A program made the position numbers and the translations under genes. A stretch of 63,982 nucleotides of DNA, counting the filler, from Basidioascus undulatus (Eukaryota), in assembly GCA_000826855.1 (NCBI GenBank). It is 13 parts of 13 records of this genome, joined end to end, with 100 filler letters (N's around TTAATTAATTAA, not from the genome) between each part and the next. Parts side by side here need not be neighbours in the genome. Positions count along the whole stretch, not along the records: positions 33,451 to 57,564 come from JTLS01000248.1; 12 more parts are not named here. One strand, given 5' to 3'. The number at the start of each line of letters is the position of its first letter. Positions within the stretch are counted from its first letter, which is position 1. Under the pieces are notes generated by a model. The model did not search any database, was not told the DNA's origin, and saw only the letters and a program-made list of their open reading frames with translations. This document shows positions 1,881-37,768 of this stretch, in pieces.

Positions 1881-3257
1881 ATGCCCCCCAAACGACCCGC
1901 CCCCTCAGCGGCATCGCCCTCCCCTGCCGCCACCGCCGCCGCGCAGCTGAAGTTGTCCCTGCCCGAGTGGCTCAAGCTGCTCGCGTCCTCGGGGCTGCCC
2001 ATGCAAGCAGCGATGGAGATAGCAAAGAAGCTGTGCGTCCCCTCCCCCTCCCACCTCACTCCCCTCCATAAACGTGCAATCCTCCTAGCCCGCCCGCACC
2101 CACAGCTACGCCACGCACCCGACCCCCGCCTCCCTCGCCTCCCTCACAAAGGGCACGCTCTCCTCCGCCGGCATAACAAACAAAGACCACGTCAAGGCCC
2201 TCCTCTCCGCATCAAAGATGATGAAAGATGCCTCTACCTCTGCGTCCCCTTCCTTGGCGGCTACCTCCTCCGCGTCTCAGACGCCGCCGAAGAAGCGCGC
2301 CCGGCGAGCGCGGGACGACGAGGCGGAGATGGGGCTCAAGGGCCCGCCTGAGCAGGAGGGCGACGCGTATGGCGAGGCGGAGGAGGGCGCGGTGGAGGAG
2401 GAGCTGCAGGGGAGGTGGGACTTTGGTGAGGGGGAGACGGATGAGGAGGTGCGTTGCGTGGTTCCCTTGCTCTCGTTTCCCACCCATCCCTTCCTTTCGT
2501 CTCGACGGTTGCTCAAGCGAACTGAAGTAGCTCCTCAAAACGAAATCCGTCATAATCAACCGCGCCCCAATAATGACAGCGTGGTCCGTCCCTCTCCCCC
2601 CCTCGCCCTTCCCTCTCTCCCTCCCCCACCCTCACCCCACCCTATCTCTTCATCATCTCACACGCGCACACACGCACGCACACACTCACACACTACCGCA
2701 GGGCCACCGTCGTCCTCGAGCGCCTCGGCTTCGCGCGCTCCGAGGCGCTCAGCATCGCGCACGTGTACACGCACCTGAACGCGACGGCGTCGGGGGTCGC
2801 ACAAGGGGTGTATACGGACGCGGAGGGCCGCGAGAGAAGGCGGAGGGAGATTGTTGGGAGTACGCAGCCTTTCGTTGAGTTGATGGGGAGGAAGTACGTC
2901 TTCCGTCCATATCCCCTCCGCTTCCCTTCGCTTCTTTACTGACTTCCCTCTTCCTCCACAGAATGTAAGGTCCCTCGTCCTTTGACTTTCTTCCTCTCAA
3001 CCACGCTCACCTCCCCCGGCAGTCCCGTCCTCCTCCTCCGCTCAACCCAGACCTACCGTGCCCTCCTCTCCTCGCGCCCAATCCCGCCGTCCCAGCCCTA
3101 CTCCTACCTGCAGCGTTCCCTGCAACAAACCCTCCCGCACGTGCTGCGCGCGCTCCGGCTGCTCGCCGCGAGCTTTGCGCCCGACGAGCTCGCAAGGAAG
3201 GCGTGGGGGTTTTACTGCGAGTTTAGGCCGGAGACGGGCGGGTGGGGGAAACGCGGG
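1881..3257 (+). CDS. Uncharacterised conserved fungal protein, multi-exon, 3' end cut by contig end
   Basis: ATG at 1881 (MPPKRPAPSAA..LSLPEWLKLL). GT..AG-bounded exons include KTKSVIINRAPIMTAW/ATVVLERLGFARSEALSIAHVY and YSYLQRSLQQTLPHVLRALRLLAASFAPDELARKAWGFYCEFRPETGGWGKRG, resembling a recurring fungal domain of unknown function. Confidence 0.7.
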
Positions 3258-3357
3258 NNNNNNNNNNNNNNNNNNNNNNNNNNNNNNNNNNNNNNNNNNN
3301 NTTAATTAATTAANNNNNNNNNNNNNNNNNNNNNNNNNNNNNNNNNNNNNNNNNNNN
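3258..3357. other. Artificial contig linker (N44-TTAATTAATTAA-N44). Identical linkers at 6613-6712, 9966-10065, 13316-13415, 16663-16762, 20009-20108, 23349-23448, 26688-26787, 30023-30122, 33351-33450, 57565-57664, 60891-60990
   Basis: Twelve identical 100-nt N-runs with a central six-frame stop oligo; genes are cut at these points. Confidence 0.99.
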
Positions 3358-4095
3358 TCCTCCTCCGCCTCCTCCTCCGCACCCTCCTCCCCGTCTACAC
3401 CGACTTCTCCACCCGAACAGACCGCCCTGCCCGCGCCGCCCGAACCCGCGCCGGCCGTTGGGCTCGGGCTCCACATGCTGGGGCTCAGCGAGCGCGGGCG
3501 GAGACTACTGGCGCTCGCGGAGCAGGCGCCGCCGTCAGACGAGGACGAGGACGAGTGGGACGACTCAGAGCTGTACGACGAGTTTGACGATTCAGAGCTG
3601 AGCATCTCCGAGTCGTCCTCTGTGCTCTCCTCCCAGCTCCCCACGCCCCTGTCAACACCCTCCACGACGCCCTCCCAGCTGTGCCCGCTCCCCTCCATCC
3701 TCCGCCGCTCCTACTCCTCCCAAACATCCTACTCCGCCTCATCCTCCTCCTCCTCCTCCTCTTCCTCTTCCGGCCGCTCCCTCAAGTCCGTCACCTTCTC
3801 CCCGCCCCCGCTCTCCGCGTTCCCGACGTTCTCGTCAGCGACGTACGACCGCACGCCCGCGCCCGTGGGGCGCCTCGGCCCACGCGAGGTGCGTGAGATG
3901 CGCGAGTGGGGGATCTGGGGCGTCGGAAAGGTCGGCGCGCGCATCACGGGCGCCGCCGCTCCGTCGTCTACCCCCCGCCCGCCGCCTCGCGTGCCCGAGG
4001 TCGACTGGTCCATGAAGGACGAGGGCAAGTGGGAGGGCAAGGGCGGGTTCTGGAGCTGTGCCCCCGCTGGAGGGGGTGGGGGAGGCGGCGCCTGA
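3358..4095 (+). CDS. 3' part of a Ser/acidic low-complexity protein with an RVxF-type PP1-docking-like segment
   Basis: Open frame from the contig start to TGA 4093-4095. Contains KSVTFSPPPLSAFPTFSSATYDRTPAPVGRLGPREVREMRE. Confidence 0.6.
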   Translation, partial: SSSASSSAPSSPSTPTSPPEQTALPAPPEPAPAVGLGLHMLGLSERGRRLLALAEQAPPSDEDEDEWDDSELYDEFDDSELSISESSSVLSSQLPTPLSTPSTTPSQLCPLPSILRRSYSSQTSYSASSSSSSSSSSSGRSLKSVTFSPPPLSAFPTFSSATYDRTPAPVGRLGPREVREMREWGIWGVGKVGARITGAAAPSSTPRPPPRVPEVDWSMKDEGKWEGKGGFWSCAPAGGGGGGGA

Positions 4096-6712
4096 ATGTC
4101 CGTCCACGCTTCCTTTCCCCCCTTTTATTTTTGAGCTTCTAACCCCGCGTCTTCATCTCAAGCAGGTCCCGTCCAGCTCCCCAAGACCGTCTTTCGTCCC
4201 CTCCCCCCAAAACCGCATTGCCCCTCGATCCCGACCGCACGCGCACTATACTTAATCCCCTCCCGCATCTCATCGGATACCCGGAAACTCCCATTCCATC
4301 GTCCCATCGCACACACAGCAGCACACCACACCGCATCTGATTTCTCTGATTTCCCCTCGGACTCTCTTCCCCTTATATCATCTCATCTATCATCGCATTG
4401 TTCGTTTCCTCTCCCTCCCTTCTTCGCTACTTCGTTCGTTGTTTTGTCATCCCCGCTTCCGCTTCCTCTGCTTATCGTTTCCCGTGCGGCGCCCAGCAAC
4501 TCAGCGGCAGTGTGCCGCTGGGGCGCGCTTGAACCTTGGACTGTGTGGACGTTGTTATACAGTTGTCTTTTTGCATGTGCGCGCTGTTGTGTGGGTGTGG
4601 GTTGGCAGAGTGGGGTGGTACGTCGAGGTTGTCGGCACTTAAACTTACCCGACAGACTTACCCGACTAGATGAACTACGACCTTATACACTTTGAGCTGA
4701 CTGGACAGAACGCAGACAGGTGTAGTTCACGACACCCGCATAAACATGAATGTACTGCAGTCACTCTGCAATCGTTCACCATATCACCCACTCTCACCGC
4801 CGCAACAGCAGCCTCGCCTGTGACCGCACTGGTATACAGCGCCCCTTGAGCTTCTTCCATCCTACTGCACATCGCGCGGCCCACCTCAGCGTCAGTGAAC
4901 TTGCTCAGCGCCGCAGGAGAAGCACGCATCCCACTCACCTCGACAGCTGCGCAGAACGCACGACTCCGCATCGCAGCCGTAGCGCAGGGGAAGCAGATCC
5001 TAGAACTCACGCATCGCGCTGCAGTCCTGCCCCTCCCCAGTGACGGCCATTCGTCAAGTCCTGGGCAGGTTGACGCTGAGGATGCTCGGCACCGTCAACA
5101 GGGGAATTTTGGTATCTATAAACGTACAGAAAATAAAGGGTTTGAGGCTTACCACTCAACTTCGCTCGTCCCGGCGATAGGGCAGGCCTGCGCCCCGCTG
5201 GAACACAGCGCCTCGGTGCGAGCGGCCAGAGAACGCTTGGAAAGCGGCGCGACGCACGCGCTGGGGAGTGTGGTTCAGCCTAGAACAAAAGAGATCAGTT
5301 TCCCTGTGGACAAAGCTGGCGATCGAGGTAAAAGGAACGTACCCATCATCGAGCCGTTCACGATGTCAGGCGAGCTGCATGTTCCGCAGCTGCCATTCGG
5401 GTCTGCGGGGGGTGGGCGAAAAGTCTAATATCAGTAACCCCTTCCGACAATGTGTTAAACAGGAACTACACAAAAGGTGTACTGATTCTCCCCCGAGCAG
5501 TTGCTCGCGACCCAATACGCCACCTCCCCGCCCGCGGCCTGGCGCGAGCGCAGCGCGCGTGCCGCAGCCGTGCGGCGGCTGACCATCTCGGCCTGCGCGC
5601 GGCGCTGGCTGAGCGCGGAGCAGTTCCCGCCGTACAGGGCCCAGGCGAGGCACGGCGTGGATGAGCCGACGTAGTTGTTGCAGAAGGACTGGCAGGACGA
5701 GATGGTGGTGGCAGTTGTGGAGGTGGAGAGGTGGTGCGCGGAGATGAAGCAGTCGGAGGGGTATTTGGATACGGTGAGGTCTGAGGGTCAGCTGTGTGGC
5801 CTAGTGATCTGCCGCGGGAATAGGCGCAACACTCACACAAAATCGACTCGCAGGAAGTTTGGCAAGCGGTGTTGTCGGTCGTCGCGTAGGATGCCAGTCT
5901 GTCCCGACATCAGTGTAAGCCCGCTTCGCTCCTCAGGTTCTGTGGCAGATGCAGAGTTAAATACTGCTTACGGGTTAAGATATGGCCAGCCGCTTGGAAC
6001 GCCATAGCCTTGGCCATATTGGTAGTGCTGTGTCGACTACGCAGCGGTAGCGTCGAGGTGGTGTTCGTAACCGCAGCCGTCGCATTGTGATAAAGGCTGT
6101 GGTGATCCGTACGGGAGTCAGGCAAAGTGGACAGACTGTTGTCAATGAGGAATCCATTCAGTGGATGCATAGACAGCGTAAGACCACTGCAGAAGGAGTG
6201 GCCAACCGCTCATGACAGGGCCGAGCATCGTCTGGCACAGCTTGGTACAGCCTCACCGGGATGCTGTACTTGGGGGCGATCTTGAAAGACTTCACTGAAT
6301 GGAGACCACCCCTCCCTGATAGTCAAATTTGCCTTGAAAGCAAACGCCCTGGGAGGCCGCGCGTTACCGAAGAGCGGCGCTGCGGCTGTGGGCTTCGTAG
6401 AGCATGACGACCAGGGCAACTGGCAGACCGTAAACCACAAGGCACACAGTTGTGCTGTAAAATATTTTAAGCCTCGTAATGTAGGGCTCAATCTATCCAT
6501 GATCGCCTGACTTCTGCCAATCGACTTGGACTGTGACTCACACGTTATTGTGATGCGTTAACGAGTAGGCAGGCGTGGAGGTTGTGAAGAAGCCTTGGCA
6601 GTGATGCTGGGTNNNNNNNNNNNNNNNNNNNNNNNNNNNNNNNNNNNNNNNNNNNNTTAATTAATTAANNNNNNNNNNNNNNNNNNNNNNNNNNNNNNNN
6701 NNNNNNNNNNNN

Positions 6713-32176: not shown

Positions 32177-33350
32177 ATGCCCACCTTGGTCTCCCCCCCG
32201 CCGACGTCAGAGTCCCAGAGCCAGTCCCCGCACTCGCCGCTCACCTCGTTCCTGCACCGCCTCCGTCCGCGCTCTCACTCGCCCGGTACGGCGTCCCCGC
32301 CATCCCCGCTCCCAGACGAGAAGTACACGCCGTACCGCCCGCCGCTCGAGCCCACGCACGCTCAGCAGCGGTATTCGATCGCCCCCGCCGGGATCGGCGA
32401 GAGCCCGAGCGTCCCCCGGCGCGCTACCGACCGTCGTACGGGGGGTTGGAAGGCGGCGGGTACAGGCGGTCACAGAAAGAGTCTTTCGTCCGGCGCGGCT
32501 GAGCAGGCGGTGAGTCCCCCGCCAGCGGCGACGACCACAGCAATGGGCAGCGAGCAGCACGTCTACCACTACCGACGCGCGCGCAGGCCGACGCTGGGCC
32601 GCCGCGACTTGGGCCCCAGCCCGTTGTTTCCCGCGCAGAACCACCCAGACCCCTTCGCGGCCGGTCCGAGATCGGCGCCCCTCCACGCGCACGCGTCGAG
32701 CAGCACGCCCAACCTCCTCTTCCCCGCCCCCGCCCGGCGCACACATACACCCACCAGCCCGGCAACTTCCAATTCCTCTTCCAACTTGATCCCGTGAGCC
32801 GCCTCTCTCCCTTCCCCCCTCTCTCCTCCAAGGTTCCAAGGTTCTCACTCATACACGACCCACCGACGCGCAGGAAATCCTTCGAGCCCGCATCCGTCTG
32901 CGACGCGTTCCTCTTCCCGCGCCCCCGTCTCCGCCCACACGCCATCACGCCCCCATCCCCTACGTCACCCTCCTACGCCTTCCCCCCGCCCCCACCCGCA
33001 CCCCAACCGCAGGGCACGATCCGCAAGACGCGCTCCGAGACGTTCTCGCATCTCGTCCCTGTGTCGCCCGTCACCCCACGCGAGAACGAGACGGACCTCG
33101 AGCGCGTCCTGCGCGAGGGCGCGGAGCTCGAACGCGAGCGCGCGCGCTGGCGCGATACGACCGCGCGGAGCATCACGGGCTCTGCGCCTCGGCGGCGGAG
33201 GTCTTCGTCCGCTGCGCATAGCCAGGCGACGCAGACGCAGACGCAGACGCACAGCCGCACGAGCTCGCGCTCCACATCCACTCGCCGGCGGCCCTCCTTG
33301 CCTTCCCTCTTCCGGCGCCCTTCAGCCGACGCCCCCCCGCTCCCTCCGCC
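32177..33350 (+). CDS. Pro/Ser-rich hypothetical protein, 3' truncated
   Basis: MPTLVSPPPTSES.., an intron at ~32794-32873 (GTGAGC..GCAG), then KSFEPASVCDAFLFPRPRLRPHAITPPSP; the frame stays open to the contig end. Confidence 0.6.
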
Positions 33351-33450
33351 NNNNNNNNNNNNNNNNNNNNNNNNNNNNNNNNNNNNNNNNNNNNTTAATT
33401 AATTAANNNNNNNNNNNNNNNNNNNNNNNNNNNNNNNNNNNNNNNNNNNN

Positions 33451-33567
33451 GGCCCCTTCCCGCTCCTGTATCCCCTCCTGTTGCCCATTAGCGGCCCTTC
33501 TCGCTCCTGTACTCTACCCCTCCTGTTGCCTATTAGCGGCGTCGCATGCAGAGCTCTTAACGCCTAA
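33451..33567 (+). repeat. Direct repeat, copy 1 (second copy at 37769-37840)
   Basis: GGCCCCTTCCCGCTCCTGTATCCCCTCCTGTTGCCCA..GCGTCGCATGCAGAGCTCTTAACG occurs at both sites; copy 1 has an extra internal tandem unit. Confidence 0.85.
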
Positions 33568-34179
33568 CCTACATGTCAAGTCCGTCCTGGAGCAGGACAG
33601 GCGGATAGTGAGGGAGCTCTGTGAACTACGGCCACCCGGCAGTCCTCACCTGACCAGGATAGCTAGTATTATAGACTTGGAATATGCCTCCTATGTGTCT
33701 CTGGAGCTGGCTAGGTATGTACACAAGGCCTGCAACCAGCACTGGCTCTGGAAGACTCTCCACGACGGCCTGGGGGTGGATGCCACCCAGACACAGACGG
33801 CGGTGGTACCCCGACTCTACCACTTTCATTCTCCCCTCATTTCCTTCTTCCCCCTTGTTTCTTCCTCCGAAGCATGAGCGATCACGGTCTTTGCCGAGCC
33901 GGCCACTGGGCGGGCAAGGAGATGAGCACATGCACTACTAGGGGCTTGCCGTTCGAGAGCATATGCGCGTAGTGGCCCGTCTCCGCTTCCTTTCCTCTCC
34001 CGAGACCATGCATGGCGGTGCGTCTCCGCTTCCTTTCCTACTCCGAGACCATGATCTTTCATCACCTTGCGTTGGGTACCCGCTGAGCCGGCTTCAGCAG
34101 AAAAGGTAGCGATTACTTCATCCTCCGCTCTGAGGACAAGGCGGGCAATCGGATCCAGATGATGCGCTTCTGCTTCTCT

Positions 34180-34186
34180 TATTTAA
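34180..34186 (+). promoter_or_regulatory. Putative TATA box of the micro-exon gene
   Basis: TATTTAA lies ~65 nt upstream of ATG 34251, which is in a CAAAATG context. Confidence 0.45.
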
Positions 34187-34250
34187 GAAGCACCGCAGTT
34201 TTGCCAGCCTCTTTTCAGCACACTCTCGAAATCATTGCCGAGCTCCCAAA

Positions 34251-36322
34251 ATGCGTTCCTCCACTCAGACCCTCTTCGTCCTCGTAGCCATTGCTGTGTC
34301 TGCCTCAGTCGAGGTCCTCGCCCTTCCGCAGGTGAGTGTTGCCCTGCCGAATCCTGAGTTACAACGAGGCACTGACGCTGGTGGTGGTATCCTGACCGTC
34401 TCAGACCGTACGTGTTTCCCTGCTGAGTCCTGAGCTTACAACGAGGCACTGACGCGGGCCATCGTCTCCCTGTCGTCTCAGGCCGTACGTGTTTCCCTCC
34501 TGAGTCCTGAGCTGCAACGAGGCACTGACGCAGGCCGTCGTCAACCCATCGTCTCAGAGCGTACGTGTTTCCCTCCTGAGTCCTGAGCTGCAACGAGGCA
34601 CTGACGCGGGCCATCGTCTCCCTATCGTCTCAGGGAGTACGTGTTTCCCAGCTGAGTCTTGGGCTTACAACGAGGCACTGACGCGGCCATCGTCTCCCCA
34701 TCGTCTCAGGCCGTACGTGTTTCCCTCCTCAGTCCTGAGCTTACAACGAGGCACTGACGCGGGCCATCGTAACCCCATCGCCTCAGAGCGTTAGTGTTTC
34801 CCTGTTGAGTCCTGAGCTTACAACGAGGCACTGACGCGGGCCATCTCTCCCTATCGTCTCAGGGAGTACGTGTTTCCCCGCTGAGTCCTAAGCTTACAAC
34901 GAGGCACTGACGCAGGCCATCGTCAACCCATCGTCTCAGAGCGTACGTGTTTCCCTCCTGAGTCCTGAGCTGCAACGAGGCACTGACGCTGGCCATCATC
35001 TCCCTATCGTCTCAGGCCGTACGTGGTTTCCCTGCTGAGTCTTGAGCTTACAACGAAGCAATGACGCGGGTCGTGGTATACCGACCGTCTCAGTTCGTAA
35101 GTGTTTCCCTCCTGGGTCCTGAGCTTACAACGAGGCACTGACGCGGGCCCTCGTCTCCCCATCGTCTCAGTGTGTACGTGTTTCCATGCTGAGTCCCGAG
35201 CTTATAACGAGGCACTGACGCGGGCCATCGTCTCCCCATCGTCTCAGCGCGTATGTGTTTCCCTCCTGAGTCCTGAGCTGCAACGAGGCACTGACGCGGG
35301 CCATCGTCTTCCCACCGTCTCAGGACGTACGTGTTTCCCTCCCGGGTCCTGAGCTTACAACAAGGCACTGACGCTGGTCGTGTTATCCTGACCTTCTAAG
35401 ATCGTACGTGTTTCCCTGCTGAGTCCTGAGCTGCAACGAGGCACTGACGCTGGTCGTGGTATCCTGACCGTCTCAGTTCGTACGTGTGTTTCCCTGCTGA
35501 GTCCTGAGCTGCAACGAGGCACTGACGCGGGCCATCGTCTCCCTATCTCTCAGGGAGTACGTGCTTCCCTGATGAGTCCTGAGCTGCAACGAGGCACTGA
35601 CGCGGGCCATCGTCTTCCCATCGTCTCAGAACGTACGTGTTGCCCTGATGAGTCCTGAGATTGAGGCACTGACGCGGGCCATCGTCTCCCCATCGTCTCA
35701 GACCGTACGTGTTTTCCTGATGAGTCCTGAGCTTACAACGAGGCACTGACGCGGGCCATCGTCTCCCCGTCGTCTCAGGCCGTACGTGTTTCCCTCCTGA
35801 GTCCTGAGCTGCAACGAGGCACTGACGCGGGCCATCGTCTCCCCGTCGCCCCAGAGCGTATGTGTTTCCCTGCTGAGTCCTGATCTTCAACGAGGTACTG
35901 ACGCGGGCCATCGTCTCCCTATCGTCTCAGGGAGTACGTGTTTCCCTCCTGAGTCCTGAGCTTACAACGAGGCACTGATGCCGGCCATCGTCTCCCCATC
36001 GTCTCAGGACGTGCGTGTTTCCCTGCTGAGTCCTGAGCTTACAACGAGGCACTGACGCGGGCGATCGTCTCCCTATCGTCTCAGACCGTACGTGTTTCCC
36101 TCCTGAGTCCTGAGCTACAACGAGGCACTGACGCGGGCCCTCGTCTCCCCATCGTCTCAGTGTGTACGTGTTTCCCTCCTCAGTCCTGAGCTTACAACGA
36201 GGCACTGACGCAGGCCATCGTCAACCCATCGTCTCAGAGCGTACGTGTTTCCCTTCTGAGTCCTGAGCGGCAACGACGCACTGACGTTGGTCGTGGTATC
36301 CTGATTGTCTCAGGCTTCCTAA
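34251..36322 (+). CDS. Micro-exon gene: small secreted peptide of 54 aa from 27 exons, 25 of them single codons
   Basis: Exon 1 is 34251-34331 (27 codons, signal peptide, ends phase 0 at CAG|GTGAGT). 3-nt exons: 34405 ACC, 34482 GCC, 34558 AGC, 34634 GGA, 34710 GCC, 34787 AGC, 34863 GGA, 34940 AGC, 35016 GCC, 35094 TTC, 35171 TGT, 35248 CGC, 35324 GAC, 35401 ATC, 35477 TTC, 35554 GGA, 35630 AAC, 35702 ACC, 35779 GCC, 35855 AGC, 35931 GGA, 36008 GAC, 36085 ACC, 36161 TGT, 36238 AGC. The last exon is 36314-36322 GCT TCC TAA. Confidence 0.85.
34332..36313 (+). repeat. Tandem array of 26 intron units (69-75-nt intron + 3-nt exon, ~77-bp period)
   Basis: Consensus GTACGTGTTTCCCT(G/C)CTGAGTCCTGAGCT(TA/G)CAACGAGGCACTGACGCGGGCCATCGTCTCCCCATCGTCTCAG+NNN. 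Confidence 0.97.
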
Positions 36323-37768
36323 CTACCGAGCGCTCAAGCGGCCAACGTCTCCTGTTCTGTCAGGGGCAGGGGGTGAAATAAGAGGGAAGTGGGAGAAGAA
36401 GGGGGGTTAATTCCGCTTCCCATGTCGATTGGGGTCTTGAATGCAACATTTGTTATCAAGAATGCCTCGACCAGCGCCAACCAGGTGCAGCACCAGCTCA
36501 TCCTATTTTCTCGATTTCGTGCCGCCAATCTGCAAAAAAGGTCCAATGCTAGAGGTCTGGGGCAGCGTCTCGATCCAAGCGGGCGGCCAAAGAGACGCCC
36601 ACGGAGCTTAGCTAGGACCTCGGGAGCAAGGGTCTTGTCCTTGGCTATTGCAAGCGGGTCGTAGCCATGACGGACGAGAAAGCCGAGCTTGCCCATCTGG
36701 TCCTTGATGGCAAGCAACTCGTGAACGCACCCACATGAGTAACTGAAGATCTTGGAAAGCGAAAAACGTGCCGCAGCAAGACTCGTCTTGAGCTGGGTGA
36801 GCGGAAGGCGGGTACGCGGCGGAGGTGGCCTCTCGCGTTGTTGTTTGGCGTTTGAGCGCTCGTCGTACCTGGCTCTCGTCTCTGCGTCTCTCCTCCCTCA
36901 CATCACCACCTTAAGTGTCCTCCTCCCGCTTCTGTCGGCTACCCTGTCAGTGTGTGCAGCCTCCCAGTGGGCAAGAGCAAGTGGCATGAAAAAGGAACGA
37001 AGGGCGGCGGATAATAAACTACTATATTGCGCAACAGGGATACGAGGGAGGACAGCGTGTATGATCCTACATCATTGCGAGCGAAGTAACAGTAAAATGG
37101 GTTAGAGCAGCAAAATACGGAAAGAAGAGGCACGAAAGGCGAAAAAGCGGGGCAAAAGATGGGCGGTGGCGGATACGTGTGTGTGCCTATGCAAAATGCT
37201 AAGAGTGAGCCCAAAGGAAAAGGAAACAGTGAAGAAAACGATACCCCAAGAATAGGAAAGAAAAATGGATGGGAAACCGTCGAAAACCGTGAGACAGCTA
37301 AAAGCGGAGGCTGTGATGTGCGTGCGAGAACTGAACTGGACGGCAAAAAAAGATGAGGGGCAAACGCCAAAAGACGAGGAGAAAGGCAAGCAAGAGGAGG
37401 CGAAGAGGAGAGGAACAATTAGAGATAAAGGTCAACGCTTCGTGTGTGGGTGAGAACGTCGATGAGAGCGCACATTGTGTCAAGTGTCGCCCCTTCCGCC
37501 GGACCCACACCGCCTGCGTCAACACAGCCATCGCCACCACGCTCCCCGACACCCCCATCACCCTCGGCAATGACCACACCATCCCCGGCATCACCCTCAT
37601 CGACCGCCTCCTCAACGCTGCCCCCCACGTCGCCAGTCCCGTCCTCCGCACCATCAAGTCCACCCTCTGTCAAGCATCTGAACACCGTGTCATCCATGTC
37701 ATCCCTACATAGTCTATTCTTCTCCTGCTGGTGCAAAGCCTTCGCTCACGTGGTTTCGGTGCTGGCCT

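Follow-up and report, generated by a model that had tools for sequence, protein, structure and literature searches.

A 77-bp tandem array at positions 34332-36313 (+ strand) of a window from Basidioascus undulatus (GCA_000826855.1; the window is the whole stretch of DNA analysed, 63,982 nt including filler between its 13 joined parts) consists of 26 intron+codon units. It probably belongs to a real protein-coding gene at 34251-36322 (+), in which a signal exon is followed by 25 exons of one codon each. This kind of layout is known from one fungal gene family, the nank genes of Tuber, to which the window adds a signal-peptide gene version. What is novel in the window is that the mature part is almost wholly spelled by 25 one-codon exons, with introns that are tandem copies of each other. 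From this anatomy, the gene is presumed to be transcribed, spliced and translated, and its product to be secreted.

Tandem Repeats Finder reports a single array at 34336-36286 (period 77, 25.6 copies, 85% matches), which makes it a minisatellite in the formal sense of head-to-tail copies of a 10-100 bp unit. A regular-expression scan for sites of the form [C/T/A]AG-NNN-GTNNGT yielded an uninterrupted series of 25 acceptor-NNN-donor sites, 72-78 nt apart, and just one other chain in the window, of two sites (32507-32622). All 26 occurrences of the unit's core motif in the 64-kb window lie within the array; 0.23 would be expected by chance. No open reading frame (ORF) runs through the array on either strand. 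When all units are removed by script, a model of 54 codons is obtained, with a frame that closes at a stop at 36322, two codons past the last intron. Exon 1 has an A at -3 of its ATG and comprises 27 codons; it is signal-peptide-like, and its residues 7-18 form a hydrophobic core (Kyte-Doolittle mean over 11 residues up to 2.9). The preliminary description of this DNA had let the array begin at 34381, whereas the introns begin at 34332.

The units were compared with the usual consensus of fungal U2-type introns (GTNNGT donor, CTRAY branch site, YAG acceptor, ~45-100 nt). All 26 donors agree with it, as do 25 of 26 branch sites and 25 of 26 acceptors, and the lengths are 69-75 nt. GTACGT is the donor in 20 introns and GTATGT in two, while GTGAGT, GTTAGT, GTAAGT and GTGCGT are found once each. 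The branch-like CTGAC lies ~29 nt before the acceptor and is replaced by CAATGAC (ATGAC) in unit 10 and by CTGAT in unit 22; the acceptor is CAG except in unit 14, which has AAG. If this AAG acceptor (35398-35403) is weak, the Ile codon behind it might be skipped in frame. In units 1, 10, 14, 15 and 26 the 3' end is of a variant type in which another CTGAC precedes the AG by 9 nt, and this is the GGTCGTGGTATCCTGACC-type end with a second branch-like site that had been described earlier. For 12 splice-critical columns picked beforehand (donor positions 1, 2, 5 and 6, CTGAC and CAG), 3 of 312 cells deviate, compared to 159 of 1612 across the remaining 62 columns of the intron, and only 10 of 100000 random 12-column sets are equally conserved. 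This near-invariance argues that the splicing competence of each copy has been maintained, with the remainder of the unit drifting by ~13% per site. Despite the variation in intron length, all 25 spacers from an acceptor to the donor that follows measure exactly 3 nt.

No Rfam family was found in 33900-36700 at E<=1, and the folding of four single introns gave no signal relative to shuffles (z -0.32 to +0.81). A snoRNA-host or structured-RNA reading was rejected given this missing fold signal, with a box-C-like TGATGA present in 3 of 26 units (17-19). A signature of repeat-induced point mutation is absent from the array (74 transitions versus 68 transversions, normal dinucleotide indices). Ordinary introns in the rest of the window were screened for crudely, for a comparison of signals; the 26 candidates, many of them overlapping and probably false, were not used.

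The 25 triplets behind the acceptors are AGC (5), GCC (4), GGA (4), ACC (3), TTC, TGT and GAC (2 each) and CGC, ATC and AAC (1 each), exactly the counts of the preliminary description. The entropy of their three columns is 1.65, 1.76 and 1.11 bits (intron-column mean 0.35), and these columns rank 2nd, 1st and 8th in variability among 80 aligned columns. Mean pairwise differences per site are 0.68, 0.69 and 0.41 at triplet positions 1-3 and 0.13 in the introns; a lower value at the third position is what codons would be expected to show. Stops are absent from the 25 triplets, 19 of which end in C. Five Pfam-supported ORF pieces of the window served as a proxy for local codon usage, with a GC3 of 0.66. 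Under this proxy, the use of one codon per amino acid has a joint P of ~4e-8. Codons ending in G, which make up 27-33% of the Ser, Ala and Thr codons in the proxy, are absent from the array (0/25).

The layout recurs elsewhere. A metagenome collection was scanned for a donor followed by two acceptor-NNN-donor sites at 40-70 nt spacing, a pattern that is blind to the intron family; at least 120 stretches were retrieved and 119 loci analysed. Among the matches listed there are 76 chains of at least 5 units, the longest having 33 units. Half of these chains (38/76) contain at least 4 distinct codons, 36 of them being non-redundant; the other 38 are plain repeats with fewer than 4 distinct triplets, so the search pattern also picks up ordinary repeats. 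The varied arrays, at least 36 in number, fall into at least 8 intron families, several of which are unrelated to one another, and six families among the matches listed hold at least two varied arrays spelling different peptides. Over the 419 triplets of the 36 arrays among the matches listed, one stop is present versus 11.3 expected from position-specific composition (P=1.3e-4), with TAT found 15 times and TAA not at all. In 13 of 13 arrays examined, which had been selected for varied codons, one or more of the triplet positions come 1st or 2nd when columns are ordered by variability. Donors usually prefer G at -1. Triplets ending in G amount to 0 of 25 in the window and to 8% of those 419, and their shortage may reflect a splicing constraint particular to 3-nt exons.

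These data bear on the reading that the array is a non-coding minisatellite mimicking introns after a short ORF, or a copy-number artefact of the assembly. The formal minisatellite nature of the array would fit it, as would the lack of any annotation or protein match (for exon 1 plus read-through, at 33-105 residues) and the plain repeats that form half of the metagenome chains among the matches listed. It is nevertheless highly improbable, given that the splice signals are selectively conserved, that hypervariability is limited to a triplet of constant length and that the array begins exactly at the donor of the signal-peptide exon and ends with an in-frame stop. The same architecture in unrelated intron families, paralogs that conserve the signal exon, and the depletion of stops among the matches listed likewise argue against it.

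The recurrence includes one complete gene model, L046, in which a signal exon of 19 codons is followed by one exon of 15 nt, nine of 3 nt and a terminal exon that contains a stop. Locus L074 is a paralog of it, with a common core promoter, 5' UTR, 19-codon signal-peptide exon and intron family, while the DNA further upstream is unrelated and the array spells a different peptide. The shared core promoter measures ~90 nt, and the two mature peptides are unrelated. A conserved signal combined with a mature part that is hypervariable resembles the pattern of venom-peptide superfamilies. Likenesses of array-spelled peptides to known domains, cold-shock-like in L046 and cupredoxin-like in L072, were no more than impressions and were rejected; L046 turned out to be a short signal-peptide gene.

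Within the window, codons are linked to the introns that precede them. The upstream introns of two units resemble each other more when the units share a codon (permutation test, p=0.0004 for the whole intron and p=0.0017 for its 3' half), and no association was found with the 5' half of the upstream intron (p=0.11) or with the downstream intron (p=0.18-0.27). The link to the upstream intron end that had been claimed is thereby borne out, and so are its examples: the GGGCCCTCG variant precedes both TGT, the GCAGGCC.TCGTCAACC variant precedes three of the five AGC, and CCCTATC precedes all four GGA, although it also precedes GCC in unit 9 and ACC in unit 23. Among the 22 units with a recurring codon, the nearest intron relative has the same codon in 13 (3 of these as ties) and another codon in nine. 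As examples, the introns of unit 4 (GGA) and unit 9 (GCC) differ at 2 positions, those of unit 4 and unit 24 (TGT) at 3, and those of unit 2 (GCC) and unit 23 (ACC) at 3.

The T-A-S-G block that had been noted twice is part of a longer repeat of nine codons, since units 1-9 (T A S G A S G S A) recur as units 18-26 (T A S G D T C S A). Five of the nine codons are identical, three differ by one base and one by two, the changes being GCC/GAC, AGC/ACC, GGA/TGT and GCC/GCT. At lag 17, codons differ by 0.56 nt compared to ~1.8 at other lags, and none of 20000 shuffles matched this, whether at lag 17 or at any lag of 1-18. At the intron level, lag 17 gives p=0.02 when taken by itself but is equalled in 2918 of 20000 shuffles once any lag is allowed; of the two signals, only the codon-level one is firm. 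The weak intron signal suggests that the introns diverged or were homogenised since the duplication. The repeated codons indicate a block duplication, as from unequal crossover. Together with the codon-intron association, it shows that the array grows by copying intron+codon units, which makes tandem copying a route to 26 introns in one gene, in agreement with the massive intron gain that the preliminary description had proposed.

The same description went further and proposed a fixed alphabet of amino-acid-specific intron+codon cassettes, in which the peptide evolves mainly by reshuffling rather than by point mutation. The association in the window (p=0.0017) and the use of one codon per amino acid (joint P ~4e-8 under local usage) speak for it, as do tests within 13 other arrays, where 14 of 50 valid tests reached p<0.05 with ~2.5 expected. 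However, introns only 2-3 positions apart carry codons that differ at 1-3 of their 3 positions, nine of the 22 units with a recurring codon have a nearest relative with another codon, one variant (CCCTATC) stands before GGA, GCC and ACC alike, and the codons of the duplicated block differ largely by single substitutions. No within-array association was seen in L058, L038 and L074. Between arrays, units with the same codon are not more alike in any of the six intron families (p=0.20-0.68), in an ungapped comparison anchored at the acceptor and thus of limited power. Overall, such an alphabet is very unlikely: the copying of units stands, while near-identical introns with different codons do not fit a fixed set of reshuffled cassettes.

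In the favoured reading as a protein-coding gene, the coding sequence would be split by 26 near-identical U2-type introns of ~73 nt each. The ~2.1-kb pre-mRNA would be spliced by intron definition, probably from 5' to 3' during transcription, an order of removal that would leave a normal long upstream exon before each next donor. The predicted product is the 54-codon frame, a small secreted peptide with two cysteines. The array would have arisen and grown by tandem duplication or unequal crossover of single units or blocks, after which the codons would diverge by point substitution much faster than the introns, with the splice signals staying under purifying selection. Since the internal exons are whole codons, gain or loss of a 77-bp unit, or skipping of an exon, keeps the frame.

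In-frame skipping also fits a different outcome, in which the array is transcribed but its micro-exons are skipped or the whole is removed in a few steps, leaving excised introns or a splicing regulator, or a mixture of skipped peptides, as the product. With 26 near-identical introns any donor could pair with any later acceptor, and the 3-bp mini-exons of Tuber nank are, in the excerpts of the reports considered below, described as alternatively spliced. Triplets that are never included would, however, leave the codon-like variation unexplained, and with it the class-wide stop depletion (1/419 among the matches listed) and the codon conservation over nine units; moreover, the introns lack an Rfam match or fold signal. 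We therefore consider this outcome distinctly unlikely.

Several points weigh against the protein-coding gene. In a collection of 5.8 billion proteins, none of those 33-105 residues long has words in common with exon 1 plus read-through (61 aa), so no annotation supports the model. The lack of stops among the 25 triplets is weak by itself, as its probability by chance is ~0.3 for uniform triplets. Unit 14 has the non-canonical AAG acceptor, and a distance of ~29 nt from branch-like site to acceptor is somewhat long for introns of fungi. With each donor just 3 nt behind an acceptor, spliceosomes on adjacent introns would have to compete sterically. The array has no sequence relative among the metagenome loci: blastn against the 119 loci gave no match, and its intron family is shared by 0/119. 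The signal-peptide call was made by eye and from hydropathy alone, and gene conversion of the introns (concerted evolution) could exaggerate the contrast between intron and codon divergence.

A broader proposal is that array-type signal-peptide genes form a widespread and essentially unannotated class of fungal secreted peptides, with the minisatellite as a frame-proof evolvability device and combinatorial in-frame skipping producing a peptide family per locus. As one repeat unit equals one residue, unequal crossover would edit the length and content of the peptide with the frame intact, and skipping would act as in the mini-exons of truffle NLR genes, here for extracellular peptides. Taken as a whole, this proposal is tentative and rather unlikely. 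Two metagenome arrays found in two samples each are colinear (99.5% and 99.9% identity) with an unchanged unit number over the overlap; rapid turnover of units is not seen at this scale.

Exons of 3 nt are beyond the reach of gene finders, hence such genes are invisible in fungal annotations. If the gene model holds, an entire class of small secreted peptides is being overlooked, which would be candidate effectors, signals or antimicrobials. With regard to bulk intron gain, the locus offers a natural experiment of iterated tandem duplication with every copy splice-competent. It offers another on how the spliceosome handles an acceptor and a donor 3 nt apart, 25 consecutive times.

The features of the gene are listed in the table. 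The window is fungal; its neighbouring ORF pieces contain Fungal_trans_2, P450, sugar-transporter and zinc-dehydrogenase domains, and no Pfam family was found in the flanking ORFs at 32503-33402 (+) and 36334-36897 (-). Two copies of a ~33-bp direct repeat (GTCTCCGCTTCCTTTCCT..CCGAGACCATG), ~45 nt apart, are located at 33960-34050, some 200-290 nt upstream of the ATG, and may be a promoter element. Further upstream of the gene, Tandem Repeats Finder reports two copies of a 45-bp unit at 33454-33540 (86% matches).

Features of the putative one-codon-exon gene, in window positions
Feature	Position	Strand	Remark
TATA-like box TATTTAAG	34180..34187	+	~70 nt before ATG; read directly, putative function
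Exon 1, ATG + 26 codons, MRSSTQTLFVLVAIAVSASVEVLALPQ	34251..34331	+	phase 0; CAG end, then donor GTGAGT
26 tandem intron units + 25 three-base exons	34332..36313	+	introns 69-75 nt
Exon 2, ACC (Thr)	34405..34407	+	site scan
Exon 3, GCC (Ala)	34482..34484	+	site scan
Exon 4, AGC (Ser)	34558..34560	+	site scan
Exon 5, GGA (Gly)	34634..34636	+	site scan
Exon 6, GCC (Ala)	34710..34712	+	site scan
Exon 7, AGC (Ser)	34787..34789	+	site scan
Exon 8, GGA (Gly)	34863..34865	+	site scan
Exon 9, AGC (Ser)	34940..34942	+	site scan
Exon 10, GCC (Ala)	35016..35018	+	site scan
Exon 11, TTC (Phe)	35094..35096	+	site scan
Exon 12, TGT (Cys)	35171..35173	+	site scan
Exon 13, CGC (Arg)	35248..35250	+	site scan
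Exon 14, GAC (Asp)	35324..35326	+	site scan
Exon 15, ATC (Ile)	35401..35403	+	site scan; sole exon after AAG acceptor
Exon 16, TTC (Phe)	35477..35479	+	site scan
Exon 17, GGA (Gly)	35554..35556	+	site scan
Exon 18, AAC (Asn)	35630..35632	+	site scan
Exon 19, ACC (Thr)	35702..35704	+	site scan
Exon 20, GCC (Ala)	35779..35781	+	site scan
Exon 21, AGC (Ser)	35855..35857	+	site scan
Exon 22, GGA (Gly)	35931..35933	+	site scan
Exon 23, GAC (Asp)	36008..36010	+	site scan
Exon 24, ACC (Thr)	36085..36087	+	site scan
Exon 25, TGT (Cys)	36161..36163	+	site scan
Exon 26, AGC (Ser)	36238..36240	+	site scan
Terminal exon start, GCT TCC TAA (Ala, Ser, stop)	36314..36322	+	3' UTR next

Some further observations concern single metagenome loci. 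In L063, a 33-unit one-codon array (~1925-4113, minus strand) is flanked by additional 3-nt exons whose introns are unrelated. A HET-domain ORF (89-1606) follows downstream on this strand, and the array may encode the N-terminal part of its protein. Loci L048 (minus strand, 613-875) and L058 (2022-2274) have five more one-codon exons (I Q N W R) that are identical in both, with introns between them that are not repeats of each other; these look like an old array with diverged introns. The repeat parts of the same two loci were considered as evidence of diversifying selection, as 7 of 7 aligned triplets differ while the introns are ~85% alike. This was rejected since units within one array are equally alike, so that unit orthology cannot be assumed. 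L071 (1-2603) contains ~36 consecutive one-codon exons, with two intron subtypes alternating (period 2) and three GTACAT donors. In L011/L032, a protein-kinase ORF lies ~1.2 kb downstream of a 5-unit chain, both on one strand.

Among known systems, the mini-exon arrays of Tuber melanosporum, a truffle, come closest in layout; they are reportedly from Iotti et al. 2012, Fungal Biol 116:261. The nank (NACHT-ANK NLR) genes of this species have, according to excerpts of three reports (PMC4986451, PMC9815663, PMC10197012), dozens of 3-bp mini-exons that are alternatively spliced. Like these genes as excerpted, the window array has many consecutive 3-bp exons in one gene (25 of 25 spacers being 3 nt), all whole codons, so that skipping is in frame, and in this filamentous ascomycete a role as a diversification device was proposed. 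The host genes differ: that of Tuber, as characterised in those excerpts, is an intracellular NLR whose arrays diversify the C-terminal recognition domain, while the window gene is no NACHT-ANK NLR gene but a putative 54-codon signal-peptide gene in which the array spells the whole mature part save the 2 terminal codons. Alternative splicing is documented for nank in the same excerpts; the likeness of the window gene is one of exon layout. A literature search on serial 3-nt exons, tandem introns and fungal micro-exon genes found no such arrays outside Tuber nank.

As excerpted from PMC10526429, micro-exon genes (MEGs) of Schistosoma mansoni encode secreted products by symmetric exons of 3-81 bp, with introns of up to 5 kb. 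The likeness to the window gene, within what that excerpt covers, is one of architecture alone, i.e. an end exon for the signal peptide and short symmetric internal micro-exons, the frame-preserving skipping of which varies the MEG proteins. Most MEG exons are longer than 3 bp and belong to a trematode, in contrast to the 3-nt exons of a fungal sequence (an ORF with a Fungal_trans_2 domain lies in the window). The MEG introns are long and, in that excerpt, not described as tandem copies, compared to 69-75 nt here.

New introns can be gained by duplication of a segment containing AG|GT. In the window, the association and block data fit such copying of a segment with splice signals, here iterated to 26 introns and with a 3-nt exon captured per unit, unlike simple tandem intron gain. 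For Zymoseptoria, tandem duplication is mentioned as an infrequent source of new introns in an excerpt of PMC4457414, which also describes the introner-like elements of Dothideomycetes as near-identical spliceosomal introns dispersed singly in unrelated genes. Families of near-identical introns are common to these elements and the arrays, with metagenome family 0 serving at least 8 arrays; the window copies, however, stand in tandem within one gene, with their motif nowhere else in the 64-kb window. Introner-like elements are predicted to form stable secondary structures, a feature not seen in four introns of the window (z -0.32 to +0.81).

Finally, isolated 3-nt exons occur in other fungi. 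Excerpts of two sources give 27 exons of 3 nt in 26 genes in the long-read annotation of Coprinopsis cinerea (PMC12230235), and two such exons in lipS of Dactylellina haptotyla (PMC5639578), which shows that fungal spliceosomes handle exons of this size. As far as those excerpts go, these are about one per gene, compared to 25 consecutive ones in the window. The gene proposed here would extend the mini-exon phenomenon of truffle NLR genes to another type of gene and, probably, to other fungal lineages.

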